Shown here one piece after another: positions 10,154 to 21,065 of a stretch of 64,000 nucleotides of DNA. A program made the translations under genes and the position numbers. Under the pieces are notes generated by a model. It worked only from the letters and a program-made list of their open reading frames with translations. It searched no databases and was not told the DNA's origin. How positions within the stretch are numbered: the stretch's first letter is position 1; each line of letters begins with the position of its first letter. Origin of the DNA: Smithellaceae bacterium (GTDB lineage Bacteria > Desulfobacterota > Syntrophia > Syntrophales > Smithellaceae); NCBI GenBank assembly GCA_028693285.1, contig JAQUVQ010000004.1, positions 1,278 to 65,277 on the forward strand, given 5' to 3'.

Positions 10154-11281
10154 TCACTTCATCCGGCTTCGTTTGGAACAACCGCGGCATGAAGGATGCG
10201 GGGCGTCGTCGAATTCCGCCCGAAACTTCATGGCAGCGCGGCCGCTCCAGATTTCCGGCAGCGACTGCGGGCCAAGGCAACCGAAGATCAGAGAACGGTA
10301 TCCTTGATGAGCCCCGGATAGGTGATATGATTCCGTAACCGGTATGTTGGTAAATGCACAGGGGGAAACGCCGCCGGACGCCGAGATGAAAACCGCCCGG
10401 TGCGGATTTTCCGTGCAGTCCCCACTTTCCGCCTCCGGATCCACCAGATTGTAAAAAAGAGAAATGCCCTCCTTTTCCGCATCCCGGGCAAGTCTGTCGT
10501 AAAGTGACATCAATTCCCGGTACTGGCCTTTGTCCTCCGGTGCCAAACATTCCTTTTGCAGATTTTCGTTACAGGCGAAATCCAGGGTGCTGATCACGAT
10601 CTGCCGGATGCCGGTTCCGGCCAGCGCCGGTATCAGTTTATCGATGTCCGGCAAATGTGAACGCAGGAGCAGATACGCAACGCTGATGACCGGCGTGTGT
10701 TGTCGCCGTACCTTTTTTTCCGCGGCGAGTCCGGCAACCGCCTCGAGAACATTGGAAAAATGAGTGCCCCGGCGCGCCTCATCGTTTTGATCTCCCACAC
10801 CCGCGAGTGAGAAAGCAACCTGATCAATGCGGCTTTCGACAAGACGGACGGCCGCCCGTCGATCGAGTAGCTTTCCGTTGGTTGTGGTACCCACCATACA
10901 ACCGGCTTTTTTGGCCAGAGCAATCATGTCGAAAAAATGCGGATAAAGTAGAGGCTCACCCCAGCCCTGTAGGTGAACCATCCGCGTCCGTCTCAGAGCG
11001 GGAAGGAGCGACCGGAATATTGCCGGAGAAAGATCGCGGTCATTCCAAGAGGCGCAGTAAACCGTCCTGGGACAATAGCGGCAGGAGGCGTTACAGCGAG
11101 TGGTGATCTCGATCTGCATCCAGTCCAGTCGGGGCATTGCCTGATGCTCCCACCAGTCCCTGATACACCCGATCAACGACGATGTACCGAATTCCTCCAA
11201 GATACCTCCTGCTGAAACACCGCCCCTAGCGTCTGATTCCGGATTAATTTTATAGTCCATTTCTACTTGGAATTTTCTCAT
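10154..11281 (-). CDS. radical SAM protein with Cys-containing C-terminal (SPASM/twitch-like) extension
   Basis: CxxxCxxC motif in EITTRCNASCRYCPRT. GWGEPLL glycine-rich SAM motif. C-terminal cysteines (CTENP...SPC...CRGC). The first ~48 aa have no recognisable motif, so the start could instead be MPRLDWMQ. Confidence 0.85.
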   Translation of the reverse strand: MRKFQVEMDYKINPESDARGGVSAGGILEEFGTSSLIGCIRDWWEHQAMPRLDWMQIEITTRCNASCRYCPRTVYCASWNDRDLSPAIFRSLLPALRRTRMVHLQGWGEPLLYPHFFDMIALAKKAGCMVGTTTNGKLLDRRAAVRLVESRIDQVAFSLAGVGDQNDEARRGTHFSNVLEAVAGLAAEKKVRRQHTPVISVAYLLLRSHLPDIDKLIPALAGTGIRQIVISTLDFACNENLQKECLAPEDKGQYRELMSLYDRLARDAEKEGISLFYNLVDPEAESGDCTENPHRAVFISASGGVSPCAFTNIPVTESYHLSGAHQGYRSLIFGCLGPQSLPEIWSGRAAMKFRAEFDDAPHPSCRGCSKRSRMK

Positions 11282-11452: not shown

Positions 11453-11950
11453 ATGGAAGACCTCACCGGACAACTTGCTGAACTTCTAGAAGATATCACC
11501 TATGATTTCAGCGCACACAATCTGAGCACCAACTGTTGCGAAAACATCTCCCACGGTGAGTTTCGCGCTCTACGTGCCGTTTCCCGCCGTGACGGATGCA
11601 CCATGCAAGACATCGCCAGAAACATTGCCGTGACCAAAAGCGGCGCAACGCGTATTGTCAGTCGATTAGAGGAAAAAAAACTTGTCCTCCGCGTGCAGGA
11701 GCGCAGCGACGCCAGGATCTGCTGCGTCCGGTTATCGAAGGATGGGAAAGCCATGTTGTCCAGAATAACGGAGGCGCCAGCGAAGAAAATATCGTCTGTC
11801 CTGGACGCGATGTCCCCGGACATGCGGCAGATCCTTCTCATCGGTTTGCGCGCCTTCATCGAGACCGCCCGCGCCCACGGCACGATCGACGGTCAACTGG
11901 AAGAAGCGGAATCGCCGGTTTCAAAAACCGGAAACAAAATAATTGGTTGA
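11453..11950 (+). CDS. MarR family transcriptional regulator
   Basis: Winged-helix core MQDIARNIAVTKSGATRIVSRLEEKKLVLR. AAAGGAG SD. Confidence 0.85.
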   Translation: MEDLTGQLAELLEDITYDFSAHNLSTNCCENISHGEFRALRAVSRRDGCTMQDIARNIAVTKSGATRIVSRLEEKKLVLRVQERSDARICCVRLSKDGKAMLSRITEAPAKKISSVLDAMSPDMRQILLIGLRAFIETARAHGTIDGQLEEAESPVSKTGNKIIG

Positions 11951-11962
11951 TGTATTCAACTA
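11944..11962. promoter_or_regulatory. palindromic operator candidate (copy 2)
   Basis: TGGTTGA-tgtat-TCAACTA, near-identical to copy 1. It overlaps the marR stop codon, 32 nt upstream of the permease ATG. Confidence 0.45.
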
Positions 11963-11993
11963 TCATAAATCATGGATACTGGAGGTTGTATCA

Positions 11994-13043
11994 ATGTTTG
12001 GTTTAAATAATTTTATTACGGCCGGAAAATTCTTTCTGGTGATCGCAGGAGAACTCATTCTCATATTTGTCGCCGTTTCTTTCATCATCGGCTTGCTGAT
12101 GGAATATCTGCCGCCGTCCCGCGTCCGGGATTTTCTGTCCAACAAGTTTACATGGGTGCAATATTTTCTGGGTGCCGGTCTGGGCGCACTCACCCCATTC
12201 TGCTCCTGTTCCACCGTTCCCATTACGGCCGGCCTGCTCAAAGGCGGCGTGCCTTTCGGCCCGACGATGGCGTTTCTTTTTTCCTCGCCGGTGCTCAACC
12301 CGATCATCATCGCGCTATTACTTTCACTGTTGGGCATCAAAGTTACGGTTTTTTATGTTGTCTTTACCTTTATCGGCTGCATGGTTATGGCAGCGCTGCT
12401 ATCCAAGTTGAGAATGGAAAGTCAGATCAAGCCTCTTTTGAATATTGAAACCTCCTGTTGCGCAGCTTCTCCTGATTCACACAATGCCTCAAAATCCAAG
12501 CCTGCGGCGGCAGCTTGCTGCTCTTCAGACAGCGCCCAACCCCTGACGTTAATCACCCTGCCGACCGTTGAGACATCATCATGCTGTTCAGTCAACCTTG
12601 AACCGATCGCCGCCCCGCCTGTGCCGTTCAGGCAAAAGCTCAAAAATGCATCGATCGCCGCCGTTGATACCTTTAAGGGTGTGTTCTGGTATCTCCTTTT
12701 AGGCGCCGCCATCGGCGCTTTCATTTATGGTTTTTTCCCACAGGATATCGTTGTCAAACTGGCGGGACCGGGAAACCCATGGTCCATTCCCATCGCGGCC
12801 TTGATCGGCGTTCCCATGTACATTCGGGCGGAAACCATTATACCCATAGCAGCCGCCCTTGTGGGAAAAGGAATGGGACTTGGCACCGTCCTTGCGCTGA
12901 TTATTGGCGGAGCGGGCGCAAGCATTCCCGAATTGATCATTCTCAGTTCCATGTTTAAAAGGAAGCTGATCATTGCTTTCGCTTTAAACGTTCTTGTCAT
13001 TGCCGTCTTAGCTGGTTATCTTGTGGATATATTCCTGTCCTGA
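11994..13043 (+). CDS. ArsP/UPF0718-type permease with vicinal-cysteine motif
   Basis: Polytopic membrane protein. LTPFCSCSTVPI matches the TPFCSCS motif of the ArsP-type predicted permease family. A Cys/Ser-rich loop (CCAASPDSH..AACCSSDS..SSCCS) sits mid-protein. Start taken at MFGLNN. Confidence 0.8.
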   Translation: MFGLNNFITAGKFFLVIAGELILIFVAVSFIIGLLMEYLPPSRVRDFLSNKFTWVQYFLGAGLGALTPFCSCSTVPITAGLLKGGVPFGPTMAFLFSSPVLNPIIIALLLSLLGIKVTVFYVVFTFIGCMVMAALLSKLRMESQIKPLLNIETSCCAASPDSHNASKSKPAAAACCSSDSAQPLTLITLPTVETSSCCSVNLEPIAAPPVPFRQKLKNASIAAVDTFKGVFWYLLLGAAIGAFIYGFFPQDIVVKLAGPGNPWSIPIAALIGVPMYIRAETIIPIAAALVGKGMGLGTVLALIIGGAGASIPELIILSSMFKRKLIIAFALNVLVIAVLAGYLVDIFLS

Positions 13044-13141: not shown

Positions 13142-14044
13142 CTAATTGCAGTGGTTGCAATGCTCCATCTCGCGGGAGGAAGACGGCAAAAGCTGGATAG
13201 TGGTGTGGTTGATGCCGTGAGTTTCGTGAAGGATTTTCTGCACGGCGCGAATGATTTGTTCATGATCGGGCGATTCGTTATCGGATAACAGATGCACGGA
13301 AAGCAGTTTCCGGCCCGTTCCGGTTTGCCAGATATGCAGATCGTTGACTTCGGCCACACCGGCAACGGAAAGCAAATCGCTCTTGACGGCATTGAAATCG
13401 ACGTCCGCCGGCACGGCATCCAGAAGCGCATTGACGGTATGCCGGATAATCTTGTAGATTTCGCGGGCAATGAAGATGCAGATGACCATGGATATAAGAG
13501 GATCGACAAAATATAAGTCAAAAAACGTAATCAGCAGAGCGCCGACAATCACGCCAAGAGAAAACAGCGCATCCTGAAGCGAATGAAGCCAGGCGCTTTT
13601 GATGTTGAAGTTCCGGGCCGATATTTTCTGCAGAAGCAGCGTGGCCGCGCTGTTTCCGACAAAAGCCACCACGGCAACCCAAAGCATCGTTGTGCCGGAT
13701 ACCTGCGCGGGTGAAAAGAGTCTTTGAACGGACTCCCAGAAAACAAAAGCAATCACCACCGACAGAACGATGCTGTTGACGAACGCAGCGATAAATTCCA
13801 TCTTGCGCCAGCCATAGGTTTTGTGTTGTGTCGCCGGACGCCGGGACATTTTTTCCGCCCAATAGGTAAAGCTCATGGCGGCAATGTCGCTCAGATTGTG
13901 AACGGCGTCCGAGATCAGCGCCATGCTTGAAATCAGCAGGCCGAAGATCATTTCAAAAACGACGATGCCGCCGTTGATGAGGATGGCCAGAATTAGATTG
14001 GCAAGCGATGCCGGTTTATTCTCCTGGTGATGATGAGGTTTCAT
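13142..14044 (-). CDS. cation diffusion facilitator (CDF) family metal efflux transporter
   Basis: His-rich N-terminus MKPHHHQ, SDAVHNLSD TM2 metal-site motif, C-terminal cytoplasmic domain, and a His/Cys tail EMEHCNHCN. Confidence 0.9.
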   Translation of the reverse strand: MKPHHHQENKPASLANLILAILINGGIVVFEMIFGLLISSMALISDAVHNLSDIAAMSFTYWAEKMSRRPATQHKTYGWRKMEFIAAFVNSIVLSVVIAFVFWESVQRLFSPAQVSGTTMLWVAVVAFVGNSAATLLLQKISARNFNIKSAWLHSLQDALFSLGVIVGALLITFFDLYFVDPLISMVICIFIAREIYKIIRHTVNALLDAVPADVDFNAVKSDLLSVAGVAEVNDLHIWQTGTGRKLLSVHLLSDNESPDHEQIIRAVQKILHETHGINHTTIQLLPSSSREMEHCNHCN

Positions 14045-14078
14045 AGGATTCTTCTTTCCTAAAAATGGTGATCTTCCG

Positions 14079-15269
14079 TCAACCCATAAGATAGCCGTAA
14101 GCCATCCCGGCCAGCGTGGACTGGATCACGACAATGGCACAGTAAACGACGGTTTTCTTAACGCCCATGATGCTGCCTATGGTGATCATGCTGGGAAGCG
14201 ACAAAGCCGGGCCGGCCAGCAAAAGCGCCAGCGCCGGTCCCTGCCCCATGCCGGAGCCGATAAGTCCCTGCAAAATCGGCACTTCGGTGAGTGTGGCAAA
14301 GTACATGAACGCCCCGACTACGGAGGCAAAGAAATTAGCCCCCAGTGAATTGCCGCCGACCAGCATCTGAATATACGATTCGGGAATCAGTGCCGGATAA
14401 CCGGGACGGCCCAGCAAAAAACCCGCCACCAAAACGCCGCCGAACAAAAGCGGAAGAATCTGCTTGGCAAAATCCCAGGTAGCCTGCACCCAGCCCTTGA
14501 GTTCATCTTTCACAAACCACTTTTTGAGCATGATACCCAAAACGACCAGCAGCCCCATCACCAAAAACCACTTGACGCTGAAAATCATGCGCCAGGCGCT
14601 TCCGTCATCCTCCGATGGCTTGGCAAACGAAGCAAAAACCAGAATCAGCACCATGACCAGCATATAAACGGCATCCTGCCACAGCGCCCTGCCCTTGCCT
14701 TCGTCTTCCGGCAGAAAGATCTCGCCCGTCTCCCGGTTGGCGTCGTCTTTGCGGAAAATAAACGCCATCAGAAGCCCCGTCACAATGGAAAAAATCACCG
14801 CGCCGATCGCGCGTGCAAGCCCCAATTGCCAGCCCAGCACCTTCGCCGTGAGAATGATCGCCAGAACATTGATCGCGGGTCCGGAATATAAAAACGCAGT
14901 CGCGGGGCCGATCCCCGCACCGCGCGTGTAAATGCCGGCAAAAAGCGGCAGGACCGTGCAGGAACAAACCGCCAGCACGGAGCCGGAAACGGAGGCTACG
15001 GAATAAGACAGGATTTTATTGGCTTTCGCGCCGAAATATTTGAGCACGGCCGCCTGCGACACGAACACGCTGATTGCTCCGGCAATGAAAAAAGCGGGGA
15101 TCAGGCAGGTAAGCACATGCTGGCGCGCATAGTCCTGAAGCATCATAAAGGCTTCCAGCCCCGCCTGACGAATCAGTACCGATTCCCACGGGATGTAAAA
15201 AGCGGCAAGAAAGATGCCGATAATCCATAATAATTTTTGCCATTCTTTCACAAGACAGATCCTCCTCAT
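14079..15269 (-). CDS. ArsP/UPF0718-type permease (second copy)
   Basis: Polytopic. LAVCSCTVLPLFAGIYTRGAGIGPATAFLYSGPAINV parallels the first permease's CSC motif. An alternative GTG start at 15251 has a better-spaced AGGAGG. Confidence 0.8.
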   Translation of the reverse strand: MRRICLVKEWQKLLWIIGIFLAAFYIPWESVLIRQAGLEAFMMLQDYARQHVLTCLIPAFFIAGAISVFVSQAAVLKYFGAKANKILSYSVASVSGSVLAVCSCTVLPLFAGIYTRGAGIGPATAFLYSGPAINVLAIILTAKVLGWQLGLARAIGAVIFSIVTGLLMAFIFRKDDANRETGEIFLPEDEGKGRALWQDAVYMLVMVLILVFASFAKPSEDDGSAWRMIFSVKWFLVMGLLVVLGIMLKKWFVKDELKGWVQATWDFAKQILPLLFGGVLVAGFLLGRPGYPALIPESYIQMLVGGNSLGANFFASVVGAFMYFATLTEVPILQGLIGSGMGQGPALALLLAGPALSLPSMITIGSIMGVKKTVVYCAIVVIQSTLAGMAYGYLMG

Positions 15270-15314
15270 TTCCTTAAACTGTGCCGTTGACCTTCTTTTT
15301 CAAGATATACGGCG

Positions 15315-15911
15315 CTACATTTGCTTCAGGGCTTCTTCCAGCCACTGCCGTATTTTTTTCTTTTCCGGCATCGTTCCCACTGAAGCCACTTTCTGATTAA
15401 TCACCAGCGCGGGCACACCCATCACCCCGTATTTGGCAATCTCACGTGGATCGGTAACATGAACCATTTCTCCCGGCGCGTTCATTTCAGACAGAACATT
15501 GCGCACATCGTTTTCCAGGCTACTGCAATTGGCGCAGCCCGGCCCCAGAATGATGACTCTGAGGACGCCGCCGGTTTCTTCCTCTTCCACCGGTTGCCCA
15601 AGAAACATTCGGAACTCGCGGACCAAAGCCCTGGCATAAAGGGGTTTGGCGCTTGCGGGAATGTAATTTTTACCCCCAAGCCTTTTGATCATTTCCGCGC
15701 CGATGGCTTCATCGGAGTTGCGGCTGAAGTCAGGCGCCATAGCCGCAATCACACTTTTCAAGCCGACGATGCCGACCAGATTGCCTTTGACACGTATTTG
15801 CGTCACTTCGTTTTCGGACATGTTTTCTATCTTTCTTCTTTTCCGCTCATCGTTGAATTCGGTTTCAAATAACCAATCTTTTTTTCCTTGCCCCCCACCG
15901 AAGGGCTTCAT
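15315..15911 (-). CDS. fusion protein: unknown N-terminal domain + Trx_3 (redox-active disulfide protein 2-like) thioredoxin fold
   Basis: The C-terminal ~80 aa, VIILGPGCANCSSLENDVRNVL...GVMGVPALVINQKVASVG, parallels the stand-alone protein at 20098..20331 (GTGCAKC...GVMTTPGLVVDG). I do not recognise the N-terminal ~110 aa. The start may be ATG 15821. Confidence 0.7.
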   Translation of the reverse strand: MKPFGGGQGKKDWLFETEFNDERKRRKIENMSENEVTQIRVKGNLVGIVGLKSVIAAMAPDFSRNSDEAIGAEMIKRLGGKNYIPASAKPLYARALVREFRMFLGQPVEEEETGGVLRVIILGPGCANCSSLENDVRNVLSEMNAPGEMVHVTDPREIAKYGVMGVPALVINQKVASVGTMPEKKKIRQWLEEALKQM

Positions 15912-15919
15912 TTTACCGC

Positions 15920-16168
15920 TCAGGTACCGCCGAAAAGCGGAATACCTCCCCGCAGGGATATCTCCCCGGCAAAACCGACCGCTATTTTATCGCCGTCCAC
16001 TATGACGGGCACCTGCATCTTGCCGCCTGAATAGGCCAGCATTTCTTCGAGTTTTTTCGGGTCTTCGCTGACATCGATATAGACAGCCTTGTCGCCATAG
16101 GCTTCACGAGCCTGAATGCAAAAGGGTCACATGTCTGTCCCGTAAATGATAATTTTTTCTTTTGTCAC
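15920..16168 (-). CDS. glutaredoxin-like selenoprotein candidate (in-frame TGA = Sec at codon 14)
   Basis: Not in the ORF track. GTG 16168 has AGGAGAGG upstream. The frame is open for 82 codons except for TGA at 16127..16129: MTKEKIIIYGTDM-U-PFCIQAREAYGDKAVYIDVSEDPKKLEEMLAYSGGKMQVPVIVDGDKIAVGFAGEISLRGGIPLFGGT. The TGA replaces the first Cys of the Grx CPxC motif. The Grx/NrdH-like core (IIIYG, VPVIVDG..GF) continues downstream of the TGA. Confidence 0.75.
16094..16119 (-). promoter_or_regulatory. candidate bacterial SECIS hairpin
   Basis: RNA is 5'-GCAU-UC-AGGCU-CGUGA-AGCCU-AUGGC-3'. The 5-bp apical stem starts 13 nt after the UGA. The 5-nt loop contains GU, and a lower CAU/AUG helix follows a 2-nt bulge. 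Confidence 0.55.
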
Positions 16169-16196
16169 ATTGCCTCTCCTAATCGACATGGGTCTT

Positions 16197-16649
16197 TTAT
16201 CTTTTCATTTCAAACATAAAATCTTTTGCCTTGTCGCCGCGCAGATATTCGGCAAGCCCAAGAAGGCCGTCGGTCAGATATTTTGATTGATACCCTTGAA
16301 GTTTCAGGTACGTGCGGGCAAGTTCGGCACGGTCGTAGTGAGGACAGGCCGTGACAACGATCTTCGCCTTATCCAGTTCGTCGAGTCTGCCCGGTAATTC
16401 GTTTAGCGGAATGTTTTTGATAAAACCGAAACTGTAAGCCTTGTATTCTTCCGGGAAACGAACATCAATGATCTGTACTTTGCCCTGATTGTATAGTTTC
16501 AGCATTTCAACGATGCCGGTTTTCATCTCCCTGCGTTCCCGATAGTCGAAACGTTTGAGGTAATTTTCAAAGGTTACGCCATCGGCGGCTGATAAGGAAA
16601 ACGGCATAACAAGTGAAAGGACGATCAGCAAAATGCCTTTTGTTCTCAT
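16197..16649 (-). CDS. exported rhodanese-domain sulfurtransferase
   Basis: Signal peptide MRTKGILLIVLSLVMPFSLSA. Single rhodanese domain with active-site loop CPHYDR (six-residue loop type). Confidence 0.8.
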   Translation of the reverse strand: MRTKGILLIVLSLVMPFSLSAADGVTFENYLKRFDYRERREMKTGIVEMLKLYNQGKVQIIDVRFPEEYKAYSFGFIKNIPLNELPGRLDELDKAKIVVTACPHYDRAELARTYLKLQGYQSKYLTDGLLGLAEYLRGDKAKDFMFEMKR

Positions 16650-16687
16650 GACGAATTCCTCTGAACAAAATAACCTGGTTTACGTTA

Positions 16688-17311
16688 TTATTTCACAGTC
16701 CAAAGATGCGCTTTGAATTTTGTCAGTCCATCCCAAATTTCATCGTCACCAACATATTTCTTTATATCTTTGGCAGAATATTTAATAACGCAAGTGGGTG
16801 TCGCATCAACCTTGTGCTCTTTGATGACGGCGCTTAAATGCGGAAAGACGGACTTTTCATTCATGGCTTTCCACGCAGTATTCTTTTCTTTAAGAAAAGC
16901 GACCAGCGCGTTTTCATCCTGAACGCGGCGGCCCTGAGCCGCCTCAAAAAGAACATTTCGGACATGAAGTGCGTTGTTTATGCCGGCATCCGCTTTCACC
17001 GCATACAGGTAATATTTCGCGTAAGTCGGCGTGGCGCGGTTAAATGGAACATCGACAAACGTCAACTTAACTTTTTCCGACGCCACCAGCTCTTTGAACA
17101 AGCCTTCGGCTTTGGCATCAATCCGTTTGCAGGGAGGACAGAAATAATCGGCAAATATAATCACTTCATAAGGCCCCTGTCCCCAGGACGGAATACCCTG
17201 TCCAACAGTCTGCCCGTAAGCAGGGGTCACGGAACCGGAAAACGTCAGCAAAATGGTCAAATGCCCCATCAAACTCACGAGCAGCAATGGGAATCTTTTA
17301 AGTTTCAACAT
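16688..17311 (-). CDS. exported DsbA-like thiol:disulfide oxidoreductase
   Basis: N-terminal signal/anchor, then the thioredoxin-fold motif FADYFCPPCK. ATG 17311 is preferred over the track GTG 17323. Confidence 0.75.
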   Translation of the reverse strand: MLKLKRFPLLLVSLMGHLTILLTFSGSVTPAYGQTVGQGIPSWGQGPYEVIIFADYFCPPCKRIDAKAEGLFKELVASEKVKLTFVDVPFNRATPTYAKYYLYAVKADAGINNALHVRNVLFEAAQGRRVQDENALVAFLKEKNTAWKAMNEKSVFPHLSAVIKEHKVDATPTCVIKYSAKDIKKYVGDDEIWDGLTKFKAHLWTVK

Positions 17312-17329
17312 TGAAGCATTCACCTCAAA

Positions 17330-18376
17330 CTACTTTTGAAAATACTTCTCCTGAAATCTCAGCGCCACCATGACCAGGCCGATCATCACCGGCACTTCCA
17401 CCAGCGGGCCGATCACTGCGGCGAACGCCGCGCCGGAGTTGATGCCGAAGACGGCGATGGCCACGGCGATGGCCAGTTCAAAATTATTGCTGGCCGCCGT
17501 GAAAGCCAGTGTCGTGGTTTTGGAATAATCGGCACCTAGCTTATTCCCCATGTAAAAAGACACAAGGAACATGACCACAAAATAGATTAAAAGCGGTATG
17601 GCGATGCGCACGACATCCAGCGGGAGTTGGATAATCAGATTTCCCTTGAGACTGAACATGACAACAATCGTGAACAACAACGCAATGAGGGTAAGCGGAC
17701 TGATGATAGGCACGAAGCGCGTGTGATACTTTTCTTTTCCCATAACCTTTACGCCGGCCAGACGCGTCAGCGCACCCGCGATGCAGGGAATGCCCAGATA
17801 GATGAAAACGCTTTCGGCGATTTGACGGATGCTGACATCGACGACACTGCCCGAAAATCCAAAGTAAGGCGGCAGGATCGTAATGAAAAACCAGGCAAAC
17901 ACACTGTAGAAAAGCACCTGAAAAATGCTGTTGAAGGCAACCAGGCCGGCGGCATACTCTGTATTGCCCTTGGCCAGTTCGTTCCAGACGATGACCATGG
18001 CGATACAGCGCGCGAGCCCAATCATTATGAGGCCCACCATGTAGTCGGGTTTATCCGGCAAGAACACAATCGCCAGAAAAAACATCAGGACAGGCCCGAT
18101 CAGCCAGTTTTGGACCAACGACAGGCCTAGGACCTTTCCATTGCGGAAAACTTGAGGCATTTCCTCGTATTTCACTTTGGCAAACGGCGGATACATCATC
18201 AGAATCAGGCCCACCGCAATGGGAATATTGGTGGTCCCGACTTGAAATGAATTGATAAAGGCCTCCGTGCCGGGAATAAAATAGCCCAGCCCCACACCAA
18301 GAATCATAGCCGCAAAAATCCATACGGTCAGATAACGATCCAGAAATGACAATTTTTGTCCGATATGCTCCGTCAT
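17330..18376 (-). CDS. acr3: ACR3 family arsenite efflux transporter
   Basis: [13 protein letters not shown]...[22 protein letters not shown] is the Acr3 signature. ATG 18376 (MTEHIG) has AGGAGG 5 nt upstream; the track TTG at 18394 is unlikely. Confidence 0.92.
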
Positions 18377-18386
18377 GGAAATCCTC

Positions 18387-18803
18387 CTATGCAATATTTA
18401 AAAAGTAATTCGTTATTTTATCTATGATCTCGTCGCGTACGCGCCGGAATTCCCACAGTATGTCTTCCGGGCTTCCGGTGGCTTTGGCCGGGTCGTCAAA
18501 ACCGATATGCGTTTTTTTCGTTCCGCCGATGTAAAGCGGACAGGTTTCGTTGGCGTCCCCGCACAGGGTAATTACAAAATGGAATGTCTGTCCGTCAAAC
18601 TCTGACAAATGCTTTGAGCGATGATGTGAGATATTCACGCCGATTTCCTTCATCGCCTTTATGGCCGTCGGATTCACAAACGACGCCTGCGTTCCCGCGG
18701 AAAAAGCTTCCAGTCGGTCGCCCAAAAAATGATTTACAATGCCTTCGGCCATTTGAGACCGGCTGGAATTGGCAGTGCATAGAAATAAAACACGTTTCTT
18801 CAC
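18387..18803 (-). CDS. arsC: arsenate reductase, LMW-PTP/thioredoxin-coupled type
   Basis: P-loop CTANSSRS (CX5R) and the downstream Cys pair LCGDANETC, with the spacing of the Trx-coupled ArsC class. GTG start 18803 has AGGAG upstream; the track start 18911 overlaps ccdA. Confidence 0.9.
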
Positions 18804-18811
18804 AAAATCTC

Positions 18812-19519
18812 CTAAATCCAGTTCAACGCAATCAAATAAACGCCGCCCAGAATCACCAGCACACCACAGATCTTTTTCAGAATGACCGCACCTTTGGAAT
18901 TCTCCGTCCAATGCAGGTAATGCTGCACGACTTCCGTAAACGTTCCCGCAAAAATCAGCACGGCACAGTGGCCGACGGCAAATGCCGCCAGAATCAACAT
19001 CGCCAGAGTCAATTGTGTTGACGCTATACTAAATACTACGCCCAGCATTGTCGCCATATAGGCGAACGTGCAAGGGCCCAGCGCAATGCCGAAGATCAAG
19101 CCCAGAATAAACGCCGCGAGAAATCCTTTCCTTTTATAATTCGGGTTTGCACCGCCTTCCATGAAAGGCAACGGCATAATCCCCAGCAGATTCAAACCAA
19201 CGGCGAAGAAAACCACGGCTACAAAATAGCTTCCGTAACCGCCGATATCCCCCATCATTCGGCCCACCAGCGCCGTGATCAGACCGATCATGCCAATCGT
19301 AATGAGAATGCCGAGGCCGAAAAACAAAGACAGGACAAAGGCCCGGCCCGTGCTGATATTCCCCTGACCGTCGATAAAGCCGACAATCAGAGGAATACAG
19401 GCAATATGGCAGGGAGAAAGAATTATGGACAGAATGCCCCAAATCAACGCCGCACCGATGGCGATGCCTGGCGACTGCGTGAGCGCCGCCGTCAAAAACG
19501 TAAAGAGGTCAACCAGCAT
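18812..19519 (-). CDS. ccdA: CcdA/DsbD-family transmembrane thiol-disulfide electron transporter
   Basis: Six-TM protein with a Cys in TM1 (ILSPCHIACIPL) and a second Cys (GPCTFAY). Abuts the upstream thioredoxin gene with no gap. Confidence 0.85.
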   Translation of the reverse strand: MLVDLFTFLTAALTQSPGIAIGAALIWGILSIILSPCHIACIPLIVGFIDGQGNISTGRAFVLSLFFGLGILITIGMIGLITALVGRMMGDIGGYGSYFVAVVFFAVGLNLLGIMPLPFMEGGANPNYKRKGFLAAFILGLIFGIALGPCTFAYMATMLGVVFSIASTQLTLAMLILAAFAVGHCAVLIFAGTFTEVVQHYLHWTENSKGAVILKKICGVLVILGGVYLIALNWI

Positions 19520-19960
19520 TTATTTGACCCCTCCCTTTTTCAAAACCTCCACAACGCCTTCCTTGGGGAAATACCCTTCATGCCTGTAGTATTCCTTTCC
19601 GTTGATATCCAGGAATACCTGAGTAGGAATAACGCGAATATTATATTTCTCGGCGTCCATCCTCCCTTGCTGCGTCCAGACATCGTGAAAAAGAACAACC
19701 ACCTGTCCCTTGTATGTCTCCGACACTTCTTTCATAATGGGCTGCATGGCCTTGCAGGGAATACATCTGGCGGCACCGATTTCTACAAACGTCACACGGG
19801 GTTTGAAAACAGAAGGGTTGGCCCCCGCTCGTTCTTTGGATGCGTCTGTTTTGGCTGCCTGTTTATCCTGAGCCCATACCCCCGCGCCCAGTGAAAGAAA
19901 GATCAGTGTAAAAACCGCCCATACCGCCAGTCCCCCCAAGATTTTTAAACGCAAAGTCAT
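19520..19960 (-). CDS. exported TlpA/ResA-like thioredoxin
   Basis: Signal anchor MTLRLKILGGLAVWAVFTLIFLSLGAGVWA, then a thioredoxin fold with active site ARCIPCK. Confidence 0.8.
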   Translation of the reverse strand: MTLRLKILGGLAVWAVFTLIFLSLGAGVWAQDKQAAKTDASKERAGANPSVFKPRVTFVEIGAARCIPCKAMQPIMKEVSETYKGQVVVLFHDVWTQQGRMDAEKYNIRVIPTQVFLDINGKEYYRHEGYFPKEGVVEVLKKGGVK

Positions 19961-20097
19961 AGATTTCCCCCTGATTTTATTTTAGTCTGATCCATCATAT
20001 CCTTTAAATATGAATCCTGAAATACAATAGGATGTCAGGAACACAGGGTTGCTTTGAAAAAAACACATCCACAGCAATTACTTAATCGGACGGCCGC

Positions 20098-20331
20098 CTA
20101 CCCCTTGATCCAGCTTTTGATCTGCTCCGCTGTCGGCATTTTACCCGCAATTTTCACCTGGCCGTCCACGACCAGGCCGGGCGTCGTCATTACGCCGTAG
20201 GTCATGATCTTTTTAATGTCCTTTACCTTCCACACCTCGGCTGAAACGCCGGTTGTTTTAACGGCCTCGTTCACCAGTTCTTCAAGTTTTATACATTTTG
20301 CACAGCCGGTTCCCAATATTTCAATCTTCAT
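20098..20331 (-). CDS. Trx_3 family small thioredoxin-like protein (redox-active disulfide protein 2-like)
   Basis: 77 aa, MKIEILGTGCAKCIKLEE...GVMTTPGLVVDGQV. The ATG overlaps the arsR stop (ATGA). Confidence 0.8.
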   Translation of the reverse strand: MKIEILGTGCAKCIKLEELVNEAVKTTGVSAEVWKVKDIKKIMTYGVMTTPGLVVDGQVKIAGKMPTAEQIKSWIKG

Positions 20332-20672
20332 TCCAACCTCCTATTTTTGCAGGATTTCATTATTTTTTTATGTTCTTCTGCGTTGGCGGCCAGCACATCT
20401 TCGACACAGCCGATGAAATCCAGAATGCAGGTGCAGCGAAGCGTGTAGTAAATGCAGTTTGCCCTCTTTTCATCCGTCACCAACCCTGCGTTTTTCAGCA
20501 CGCTTAAATGCTTGGACACCGTCGAAACATCCGCGCCGACCATCTCGGTCAGCTCGTTCACACAGCGTTCCTGCTTTTGCAGCTCTTCAATGATCAGCAG
20601 ACGACTCGGATGCGCCATCGCCTTGAGAATTTTTGCCCGGGCTTCATAACGGGGCTTGATGGAATCTTTCAT
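20328..20672 (-). CDS. arsR: ArsR/SmtB family transcriptional repressor
   Basis: HTH core AMAHPSRLLIIEELQKQERCVNELTEMVGADVSTVSKHLSVLKNAGLV. ATG 20672 (MKDSIK) has GGAGGG 8 nt upstream. The track ATG 20702 lies inside the predicted -10/operator. Confidence 0.85.
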   Translation of the reverse strand: MKDSIKPRYEARAKILKAMAHPSRLLIIEELQKQERCVNELTEMVGADVSTVSKHLSVLKNAGLVTDEKRANCIYYTLRCTCILDFIGCVEDVLAANAEEHKKIMKSCKNRRLE

Positions 20673-20692
20673 CAGACGTTCCCTCCATTCGT

Positions 20693-20728
20693 ATTTGGCC
20701 ATATAGCCAAATAGCCATAATGAGTCAA
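20693..20728 (-). promoter_or_regulatory. arsR promoter with overlapping palindromic operator
   Basis: Minus strand reads TTGACT (20723..20728), a 17-nt spacer, then TATATG (20700..20705). The 20-bp palindrome ATTTGGC-tatatg-GCCAAAT (20693..20712) is centred on the -10. Confidence 0.55.
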
Positions 20729-20801
20729 GGCTTAATTTTGAGTGGAGAGATTTTTAAATGGATAAAGGTCCGGCGCCGGCAACCGGGGCTCAATGCCCCG
20801 G

Positions 20802-21065
20802 TTACATCGGCGATGAGGTTTCATCGTAGGAAATATCAGTAAAATTCAGGAAGTTTTCCCTGGTTTCTTCCCATGCCCTGCTTTTCGCCTCGTTGTAGCT
20901 GGCGATCATTTCCGCATCGTGAGCTTCCAGAAACTGTTGAAGCCGGCCGGAAGACTCCAGGTCTTCATACATCAGGGGCGCCTTGTCCTTCAAGGCCTGC
21001 CGGATCATCTCCAGACGGTTCTTTTTTTCGTTTTCCGCTGCCGGATCTATGTTCATGGTTTGCAT
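20802..21065 (-). CDS. hypothetical acidic protein
   Basis: 87-aa ORF with no motif I recognise. An AAAGG SD favours the second ATG (21056). Called coding only on length and position. Confidence 0.45.
   Translation of the reverse strand: MQTMNIDPAAENEKKNRLEMIRQALKDKAPLMYEDLESSGRLQQFLEAHDAEMIASYNEAKSRAWEETRENFLNFTDISYDETSSPM

Follow-up and report, generated by a model that had tools for sequence, protein, structure and literature searches.

Structure and Organization of the ars Cluster

A cluster of arsenic-resistance (ars) and thiol-redox genes was analysed in a stretch of 64,000 nucleotides (nt) from the genome of a Smithellaceae bacterium (assembly GCA_028693285.1, contig JAQUVQ010000004.1, positions 1,278 to 65,277), hereafter referred to as the window, whose own coordinates are used throughout. 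Between positions 13142 and 20728, the minus strand harbors twelve co-directional reading frames; a previous interpretation based on the letters alone (hereafter, the sequence-only reading) had described them as a twelve-gene cluster, and its coordinates and every one of its domain calls were reproduced with Pfam or NCBIfam profiles. The first gene, arsR (20328..20702), encodes a metalloregulator of the ArsR/SmtB family (HTH_5, 57 bits; NF033788, 83.7 bits against a cut-off of 55). It is followed by trx3 (20098..20331), coding for a small cytoplasmic Trx_3 protein of the MTH895 type with a CAKC motif and 77 amino acids (aa) in length (PF13192, 101 bits; TIGR00412, 'MTH895/ArsE', 107 bits; PDB 1ILO, E 8e-18), by a gene for an exported or anchored thioredoxin (19520..19960) with a CIPC motif and a hydrophobic, signal-like N-terminus (PF00085, 40 bits), which is a candidate periplasmic acceptor for CcdA, and by ccdA itself (18812..19519), whose product is a transmembrane thiol-disulfide electron transporter of the DsbD family (PF02683, DsbD_TM, 43.8 bits against a cut-off of 27.1). 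Then come arsC (18387..18803, starting with GTG), coding for a predicted thioredoxin-coupled arsenate reductase of the low-molecular-weight protein tyrosine phosphatase (LMW-PTP) type (PF01451, 66.9 bits), and acr3 (17330..18376), whose product is the arsenite efflux permease expected of an ars operon (TIGR00832, 457.9 bits against a cut-off of 282.8). The cluster is completed by genes for a DsbA-like protein, a rhodanese, a glutaredoxin-like selenoprotein, a Trx_3 fusion, an ArsP_1-family permease, and a CDF transporter.

The spacing of these genes is also the one previously claimed. The arsR and trx3 frames overlap in an ATGA, no nucleotide separates the exported thioredoxin gene from ccdA, and 137 nt (19961-20097), the sole long gap of the cluster, lie between trx3 and the exported thioredoxin gene; the remaining gaps range from 6 to 63 nt depending on the start codon chosen, with 8 nt between ccdA and arsC. 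No terminator-like site was found within any intergenic gap, all of the minus-strand matches of the cluster falling inside coding sequence. As had been proposed, an ars core is interleaved with a set of genes leading from the cytoplasm to CcdA and to an exported thioredoxin. The cluster shares with the canonical arsR-arsC-acr3 operons (arsRBC/arsRDABC) the ArsR/SmtB repressor, the predicted thioredoxin-coupled LMW-PTP ArsC, and the ACR3 pump; unlike them, it contains neither arsD nor arsA, and thiol-redox and additional transporter genes lie to either side of its arsC-acr3 pair.

The sequence-only reading knew of no described role for such a redox branch in arsenic resistance. The association itself was reported in 2010 by Castillo and Saier, who found Trx_3, thioredoxin, and CcdA genes associated with ars genes in the ars operons of the SEED, in 8 instances from 7 genomes (PMC2963123); the literature on ars-linked CcdA/Trx genes, on 'ArsE', and on the Bacteroides vulgatus operon yielded no functional study of it and nothing further than the article of Castillo and Saier, a paper on Fusibacter mentioning a redox-active disulfide protein only as the thioredoxin reductant for ArsC. 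In the operons of Castillo and Saier, the same three redox genes are embedded with arsR, arsC, acr3, and arsP; compared with these, the window adds the DsbA-like protein, the exported rhodanese, a glutaredoxin with two selenocysteine (Sec) residues, the Trx_3 fusion, the CDF transporter, and a second permease, and the module is traced here to 80 species of at least eight phyla. The cluster of the window is, hence, a new and unusually elaborate form of a kind of ars operon whose core association was already known.

Distribution of the Thiol-Redox Module

In order to assess the recurrence of the module, genomes were scanned with a CcdA alignment, retaining one genome per species, which disclosed 80 loci. 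About 45 of them are Smithellaceae/Syntrophales-like, and about 35 belong to other lineages (Spirochaetota, Planctomycetota, Omnitrophota, Hydrogenedentota, Krumholzibacteriota, Desulfuromonadales, Gemmatimonadales, and others), so that the linkage spans at least eight phyla, i.e., that of the Smithellaceae and seven more. The CcdA identity in the other phyla (58-68%) is high for a cross-phylum comparison. The proteins of the window were then mapped to these loci by tblastn, limiting each count to the loci with sufficient flanking DNA. The exported thioredoxin gene lies directly upstream of ccdA in 70 of 75 loci (42/43 in Smithellaceae and 28/32 in other phyla), and a Trx_3 gene is located upstream in 64/70 (35/39 and 29/31, respectively). 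An ArsP-family permease is encoded within 10 kb in 44 of 45 loci (25/25 and 19/20), and Acr3 or ArsC within the same distance in 41/45 (all of the 25 Smithellaceae loci and 16 of the 20 from other phyla); the divergent 'Acr3' of many loci (32% identity) is a genuine ACR3 (376 bits). An ars gene is expected in about 1% of random 20-kb genome windows, as estimated from genome size rather than computed; the association between ars genes and the thiol relay is, therefore, far beyond chance. Outside Smithellaceae, the usual order is arsR-arsP-trx3-trx-ccdA, to which acr3 and arsC may be added. The sequence-only reading had named a gene order not conserved in relatives as the sign of independent operons juxtaposed by chance; instead, the order recurs across the 80 species genomes.

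The cysteines on which a thiol relay would depend are conserved as well. In CcdA, which has an xPC motif in each of the two pseudo-symmetric halves of the DsbD_TM domain, Cys37 (in the SPC motif) is present in 80/81 sequences and Cys150 (GPC) in all 81, while the CxxC motif is invariant both in the exported thioredoxin (68/68) and in Trx_3 (90/90). Two further CcdA residues, Cys185 (79/81) and Cys218 (80/81), are nearly invariant in the clade, and Cys41 is specific to Smithellaceae. It is the adjacency of the three genes that suggests a transfer of electrons from Trx_3 through CcdA to the exported thioredoxin. The latter had been labelled TlpA-like: its architecture (an exported thioredoxin fold with a CxxC motif) agrees with this label, but its score against the ResA model NF002854 is only 22.5 bits, compared with a cut-off of 170; for this reason, it should rather be called an exported thioredoxin. 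The signal-like hydrophobic N-termini of this protein, of the DsbA-like protein, and of the rhodanese were judged by eye.

CcdA and a ResA/TlpA-like thioredoxin form the classic accessory pair of System II cytochrome c maturation. It might, therefore, be supposed that a housekeeping pair of this type has come to lie beside ars genes by chance, and a cytochrome_cB gene does adjoin ccdA in one distant locus. This explanation appears extremely improbable and was rejected, since the gene neighbourhoods already speak against it in most respects: the linkage recurs in the phyla listed above, the pair lies under a putative ArsR promoter with spacings of 0 (Trx/ccdA) and 8 nt (ccdA/arsC), no ccsBA/resBC genes are located nearby, and the module is duplicated in one metagenome-assembled genome (MAG). 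In the latter (MFD04716.bin.2.259), two arsR-trx3-trx-ccdA-arsC modules (loci L008 and L010) are located on different contigs and are followed by different downstream cargo.

A second explanation concerns the enzyme that the relay might serve. Castillo and Saier guessed that the redox genes feed ArsC, forming a 'putative arsenate reductase system' (PMC2963123), and several features of the window agree with a supply of reductant by Trx_3, thioredoxin, and CcdA to the cytoplasmic ArsC: arsC directly follows ccdA, and its product is of the thioredoxin-coupled type, with the CX5R P-loop and the Cys7/79/86 triad present and conserved (its score against TIGR02691, 133 bits, is under the cut-off of 174). 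However, the thioredoxin adjacent to CcdA has a signal-like N-terminus and is paired with a membrane electron exporter, so that it could not reach a cytoplasmic ArsC, and the same topological problem was raised by the original authors, who saw little point in moving electrons through the membrane for an enzyme located in the cytoplasm (PMC2963123). Moreover, ArsC accompanies the module in 24 of the 45 complete loci and is not found within 10 kb in the other 21, in contrast to the 44 that have ArsP. On these grounds, the supply of ArsC appears a rather improbable function of the module.

The Permeases and the Other Transporter

The permease of the cluster (14079..15269, minus strand; PF03773, 259 bits) belongs to the ArsP_1 family and carries a CSC motif. 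A second ArsP_1 permease with the same motif (PF03773, 203 bits), preceded by a marR gene, was found on the plus strand at 11453-13043, convergent with the operon, where the sequence-only reading had placed it just beyond the island. Both copies contain the vicinal cysteine pair of PF03773, and the CSC motif is invariant (53/53). The family also comprises the ArsP of C. jejuni, involved in methylarsenite efflux, as well as SO_0444 and SaoE, all of them sharing an invariant Cys-x-Cys in a transmembrane segment; a preprint by Haft describes the CSC motif as common to the SO_0444 and SaoE permeases, with an occasional Sec form. The permeases of the window fall far below the cut-offs of these equivalogs, the one in the cluster scoring 116 bits against 300 for SO_0444 and 113 against 325 for SaoE. 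The label 'ArsP-type' holds, thus, at the Pfam level, but it finds no support in the nearest NCBIfam equivalogs, i.e., the Cu/Zn efflux protein SO_0444 and SaoE. Since ArsP is the most constant partner of the relay (44/45) and ArsC is often absent, the most economical target for the relay would be the CSC pair of the permease itself; this specific target can be put forward only tentatively, as a possibility.

The pair formed by marR and the second permease recurs in related islands (loci L010, L018, L024, L025, L031, L042, L051, and L087). In the second permease (11943-13043, plus strand), three CC pairs (SCC, ACC, SCC) lie within one hydrophilic loop, which suggests that this loop binds soft metals, and the MarR protein paired with it carries a CC motif and Cys-rich segments. 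The last gene of the cluster (13142..14044, minus strand) encodes a CDF transporter for the efflux of divalent cations (PF01545 and ZT_dimer; TIGR01297, 250 bits against a cut-off of 82) ending in a His/Cys-rich C-terminal tail.

The presence of such genes raises the question of whether arsenic is just one of the targets. According to this explanation, the cluster would protect the envelope in general, against soft metals and metalloids as well as reactive sulfur, the arsenic genes being one cargo among others and the relay serving periplasmic cysteines damaged by metals, as in the Scs (suppressor of copper sensitivity) system. The CDF transporter, the similarity of the permeases to the Cu/Zn-type SO_0444 and to SaoE, and the weak resemblance of the DsbA-like domain to ScsC structures agree with it, as does the company kept by the relatives of the rhodanese, which lie beside genes for Trx-CcdA, TauE, DsbA-like, CDF, Metal_resist, and MamX proteins and a chromate transporter. 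A further case is a cultured organism, Sulfuricella denitrificans, whose plasmid pSCD (NC_022358.1, 45801-64487; locus L089) harbors a Trx-CcdA pair (54% identical) together with genes for ArsM (arsenite methyltransferase), ArsC, RND pumps, OsmC, TauE, FmdE, and a CDF transporter. On the other hand, Acr3 or ArsC is encoded within 10 kb in 41 of the 45 loci, the regulator is of the ArsR type and displays the pattern of three cysteines, and no copper-specific genes are present in the window. A general defence of this kind appears unlikely.

The Scs system (DsbD-like ScsB, DsbA-like ScsC, and TlpA-like ScsD) likewise links a membrane thiol transporter and periplasmic thioredoxin folds to metal stress. 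The CcdA of the window, in contrast, is a bare transmembrane domain of 235 aa devoid of the periplasmic domains of ScsB, ScsC structures are only weak matches to the DsbA-like protein (hmmsearch E 0.6-1; Foldseek 4gxz, E 4e-4), and both the regulator and the cargo are of the arsenic type, so that the cluster does not classify as an Scs system. By analogy, Scs would be the best functional counterpart for a periplasmic thiol branch in metal resistance, without the cluster being a member of it.

Regulation of the Cluster

The true start of arsR is probably the ATG at 20672 (114 aa) rather than the codon at 20702, since a GGAGGG ribosome-binding site lies upstream of the former and 114 aa are called in the public record. 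With this start, an inverted repeat at 20692-20713 (91% complementary) falls in the promoter region, as expected of an ArsR operator. It is part of an element at 20692..20727 (minus strand), read from the sequence, in which a promoter-like TTGACT-17-TATATG is combined with the imperfect dyad (TATTTGGCCAT/ATAGCCAAATA), which is a candidate ArsR operator. The first gene of the cluster, thus, encodes a repressor of the ArsR/SmtB type and is preceded by a promoter-like site and a dyad, as in ars operons. Three cysteines of the ArsR protein (Cys37, Cys82, and Cys89 in the 114-aa numbering) are invariant in 39/39 orthologs with at least 55% identity, and the same pattern also occurs in orthologs from other phyla. 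This pattern, which differs from the CVC site of the R773 ArsR, would be compatible with a trigonal As(III) site formed by helix 3 and the C-terminal region.

The 137-nt spacer between trx3 and the exported thioredoxin gene (19961..20097, minus strand) corresponds to a junction that varies across relatives: the two genes are separated by 10-47 nt in several of them and by up to 4 kb elsewhere, and genes for an ArsP permease, TauE, or a P5CR-like protein have been inserted between them. On the basis of this variation in length and gene content, the spacer looks like a recombination junction and not like a fixed operon boundary. No terminator-like site was found in it, and the idea of a terminator or riboswitch was dropped, the fold of the spacer being no better than that of shuffled sequences (z +0.66). 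A promoter-like hexamer pair is present at 20008-19979. The lack of terminators in the gaps, together with the 10-47 nt spacing of trx3 and the exported thioredoxin gene in several relatives, supports the possibility that the genes belong to a single transcriptional unit.

Lineage-Specific Genes

Three of the genes located downstream of acr3 show a much narrower distribution than the relay. Among the 45 complete loci, a DsbA-like gene was found in 22 (22/25 in Smithellaceae), a rhodanese gene in 5 (5/25), and a seleno-glutaredoxin gene in 10 (10/25), and none of the three occurs in any of the 20 loci from other phyla. They are, hence, lineage-specific additions of Smithellaceae/Syntrophales lying outside the conserved core. 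The sequence-only reading had proposed a comparison of neighbourhoods in which arsC-acr3 would co-occur with ccdA and with tlpA-like, dsbA-like, and rhodanese genes; the recurrence was observed for ccdA and the exported thioredoxin gene, but outside Smithellaceae it does not extend to the other two.

The DsbA-like protein (16688..17311, minus strand; PF13462, Thioredoxin_4, 38.4 bits) is an exported CPPC protein of 207 aa, i.e., a short form, most of its homologs being about 346 aa long. The DsbA family traits (a thioredoxin fold into which a helical domain is inserted, together with a CPxC active site) are all present, and the catalytic cysteines are invariant or nearly so. In about 29 Smithellaceae loci (for example, L029 14280-15302 and L007 7396-8466), the relatives of this protein possess an extra N-terminal region of 140 residues, in which four helices are predicted, the first loop carrying a CxxxC pair and helix 4 beginning with a CPFC motif; the fifth helix that follows corresponds to the signal-like segment of the window protein. 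Four helices joined by a fifth one to a thioredoxin-fold domain constitute the architecture of the bacterial VKOR-thioredoxin fusions, and the Synechococcus-type fusions share with the relatives the four helices, the loop cysteine pair, the CXXC of helix 4, the fifth helix, and the thioredoxin-fold domain. In contrast to these fusions, the match of the relatives to the Pfam VKOR model is below threshold (19.3 bits against a cut-off of 27.5, E 0.0013), and the copy of the window is devoid of the membrane domain. No match to the N-terminal domain was found among PDB sequences, and a Foldseek search with a whole fusion homolog was dominated by the DsbA domain. The homology of this domain to VKOR is, thus, only suggestive.

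A profile of the fusion-type proteins matches the DsbA of S. aureus (E 2.6e-6) and also BdbD of B. subtilis, both of which are oxidases, and the top Foldseek matches of a model of one homolog (P0124) are DsbA proteins (probability 1.0, TMt ~0.6). Because of the fusion to a weakly VKOR-like membrane domain in the relatives and of the oxidases being the closest solved relatives, this lineage more likely serves to form disulfides than to accept electrons from the CcdA relay, and the role of reducing-relay acceptor previously assigned to the DsbA-like protein appears doubtful.

The rhodanese (16197..16649, minus strand; PF00581, 37.6 bits against a cut-off of 22.2) is a single-domain protein with a signal-like N-terminus, predicted to be exported. 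Its catalytic cysteine is invariant (6/6), the active-site loop (CPHYDR) has the expected six residues, and its score as a PspE or GlpE equivalog is about 21 bits compared with 102. The gene adjoins the DsbA-like gene in 6 of 7 loci. More distant relatives of the rhodanese (61-73% identity; L086, L087, and L088, from other Syntrophales) are found within large envelope-stress islands, which encode Trx-CcdA, DsbA-like, TauE, P5CR-like, DUF169, Metal_resist (LTXXQ), MamS/MamX, and CDF proteins, as well as a chromate transporter, a sigma-54 activator, and ArsA/Acr3; such islands are related to metal stress in a broader sense and not strictly to arsenic.

The co-occurrence of an exported rhodanese and an exported thioredoxin in one ars operon might point to arsenic chemistry in the periplasm, either as a reduction of pentavalent (organo)arsenicals or as a rhodanese-driven thiolation to thioarsenicals, limiting re-entry. 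The relatives come largely from digester metagenomes, as indicated by sludge-digester isolate labels, and digester habitats are sulfidic. However, the restriction of the rhodanese to 5 of 25 Smithellaceae loci excludes it from the conserved function, and no candidate periplasmic arsenate reductase was found; such chemistry is, thus, very unlikely to be what the module performs.

The glutaredoxin-like selenoprotein (15908..16168, minus strand) belongs to the UXX-star family 1 (NF041114, 82.8 bits against a cut-off of 72); its gene extends from a GTG at 16168, placed behind an AGGAG ribosome-binding site, to the TGA at 15908. The sequence-only reading had listed it as a Sec-glutaredoxin; the gene contains two in-frame UGA codons, not one. 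The first one (16127-16129) lies in a UPFC motif, and the second one (15920-15922) lies at the C-terminus, GGT-U-AVK-stop. The C-terminal TGA is kept in 19/19 tblastn hits, 14 of which are from outside the species of the window, and the TGA is identical across five independent assemblies. Most of the Smithellaceae homologs have CPFC and a conserved C-terminal 'GGT-U-SV-stop', from which the window protein differs in having a predicted N-terminal Sec.

A candidate selenocysteine insertion sequence (SECIS) hairpin follows each UGA. The one for the first UGA (AGGCU-CGUGA-AGCCU, 16099..16113, minus strand) has 5 bp and is weak in isolation (z -1.5); it is retained, with one compensatory pair, in the sole other UGA-bearing homolog (L013). 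The one for the C-terminal UGA (GCCCUUC-GGU-GGGGGGC, 15890..15906, minus strand) occurs in the same place in 14 homologs, 13-17 nt past the UGA, with compensatory changes in 3 of 6 pairs. The support for the SECIS elements comes from these comparative hairpins, since an Rfam scan of the 11-23 kb region at E<=1 revealed no SECIS or other relevant RNA family, one sub-threshold match to an S4 leader being the only exception. A C-terminal UGA followed by a SECIS-like hairpin is the hallmark of the UXX-star family 1 and is found here with a U+3 spacing, and Sec insertion is predicted. With this family ('distant Grx-like protein 1'), the window protein shares the glutaredoxin-like fold and a C-terminal Sec near the stop, from which it is separated by three residues instead of two. 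A 2026 review lists the UXX-star selenoprotein family 1 with two Sec residues (PMC13188914), and the window provides a clean example of a glutaredoxin of this type with both candidate hairpins.

The next gene (15315..15911, minus strand) codes for a fusion of an N-terminal domain and a C-terminal MTH895-type Trx_3 domain with a CANC motif (PF13192, 84 bits, residues 119-192); the CxxC is invariant (18/18). The match to PDB 1ILO is confined to residues 117-190, and the N-terminal domain (about 85-115 aa) has no Pfam or PDB sequence match. Since the hairpin at 15890-15906 overlaps the annotated 5' end, the true start of the gene may be the ATG at 15821. A second suboperon composed of arsR2, the Trx_3 fusion, a divergent ACR3, and the UXX-star glutaredoxin is present in some relatives (L007 5361-7348; L010 5236-8368; L029 12158-14219); as a rule, therefore, the genes for the seleno-glutaredoxin and the Trx_3 fusion accompany one for an Acr3 pump.

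Proposed Function of the Module

Taken together, the operon probably consists of a canonical core, a widely conserved accessory thiol relay, and lineage-specific additions, having been horizontally acquired and being under the control of ArsR; likewise, we consider it reasonably likely that it is an arsenic-controlled resistance operon endowed with a genuine trans-membrane thiol relay. The following scheme can be depicted. The inducer would be As(III), whose binding to the three cysteines of ArsR would release the dyad operator overlapping the promoter, and the genes from 20702 to 13142 would then be transcribed, probably largely as one unit. The LMW-PTP ArsC, with a thioredoxin-type donor, would reduce As(V) in the cytoplasm, and Acr3 would expel the resulting As(III), while the CSC permease might expel a thiol-reactive species, such as a trivalent organoarsenical or a soft metal, and the CDF transporter divalent cations. 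Trx_3 would act as the cytoplasmic dithiol donor to CcdA, perhaps backed by the seleno-glutaredoxin and the Trx_3 fusion, so that electrons would flow outwards, through the membrane by way of CcdA and on to the exported CIPC thioredoxin. The latter might maintain cysteines facing the periplasm in a reduced or As(III)-free state, the candidate targets being the Cys pair of the permeases and envelope proteins. The DsbA-like protein and the rhodanese, added in Smithellaceae, would handle envelope cysteines in the opposite sense, through disulfide closure and sulfane sulfur, respectively, rather than as acceptors of the relay.

Some observations weigh against this scheme. The presence of ArsC in just 24 of 45 loci and the Cu/Zn-type character of the nearest permease equivalogs indicate that the module may not be specific for arsenic; Trx_3 could serve ArsC or ArsP instead of CcdA; the promoter-like hexamer pair in the 137-nt spacer makes two transcripts possible; and the DsbA-like protein of the window has lost its presumed oxidase membrane partner, no cognate re-oxidase domain (DsbB/VKOR) and no copy of the N-terminal membrane domain of its relatives being detected in the window by tblastn.

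Arsenic resistance is taught as a purely cytoplasmic process of reduction and pumping. The tight linkage of a membrane electron exporter and a periplasmic thioredoxin to ars genes across at least eight phyla, together with the conservation of their redox cysteines, implies a selected extracytoplasmic function. In the boldest proposal, the module comprising ArsP, Trx_3, the exported thioredoxin, and CcdA would be a dedicated, arsenic-induced system whose extracytoplasmic substrate is either arsenic itself or thiols that arsenic has damaged, for example by stripping As(III) or organoarsenicals from periplasm-facing Cys pairs and, in Smithellaceae, by thiolating the expelled arsenite against re-entry with the aid of the rhodanese and of a DsbA/VKOR arm. 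This proposal, as a whole, is unlikely to be correct; if true, it would add an extracytoplasmic step to the paradigm of arsenic resistance. There are also hints that in Smithellaceae an oxidising VKOR-DsbA arm may travel with the reducing one. The survey yields a defined core and, in the plasmid pSCD of S. denitrificans, a cultured, plasmid-borne relative that represents a possible experimental handle.

Genomic Context of the Cluster

The GC content of the island is lower than that of its flanks, as had been noticed by eye: it amounts to 50.0%, while the remainder of the window has 55.4%. Of all windows of equal length, just 1.6% are as GC-poor, the minimum being reached at 12901; at this length, the island shows the lowest GC content of the whole window. 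A horizontal acquisition would fit this composition, as well as the 58-68% cross-phylum identity of CcdA and the existence of a plasmid-borne relative. A scan of the window for tRNA genes revealed none, and thus no tRNA-linked integration site, and no integrase or transposase was found among the neighbouring genes called. From the comparison of loci, the cluster of the window is an elaborate member of a mosaic and mobile family of metal/metalloid islands in which the thiol relay is the constant element.

An identical CcdA is encoded in GCA_040766315.1 and in many metagenome assemblies, mostly of an apparently anaerobic-digester type, with the same gene order in all of them, and its nearest named relatives belong to Smithella and Smithellaceae MAGs. 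The genes flanking the island are housekeeping ones, coding for acetyl-CoA synthetase-like, LPP20, YkuD, porin, radical SAM maturase, and dodecin proteins. The radical SAM/SPASM protein (10154-11281, minus strand), located just outside the island, is most similar to the tungsten-cofactor oxidoreductase and 'rSAM_Geo_metal' maturases, with scores below the respective cut-offs. On the other side, the island is preceded by an open reading frame of 87 aa with no family match (20802-21065, minus strand), at whose end there is a perfect 9-bp GC hairpin (20781-20803) that probably shields the ars promoter against transcription arriving from upstream.

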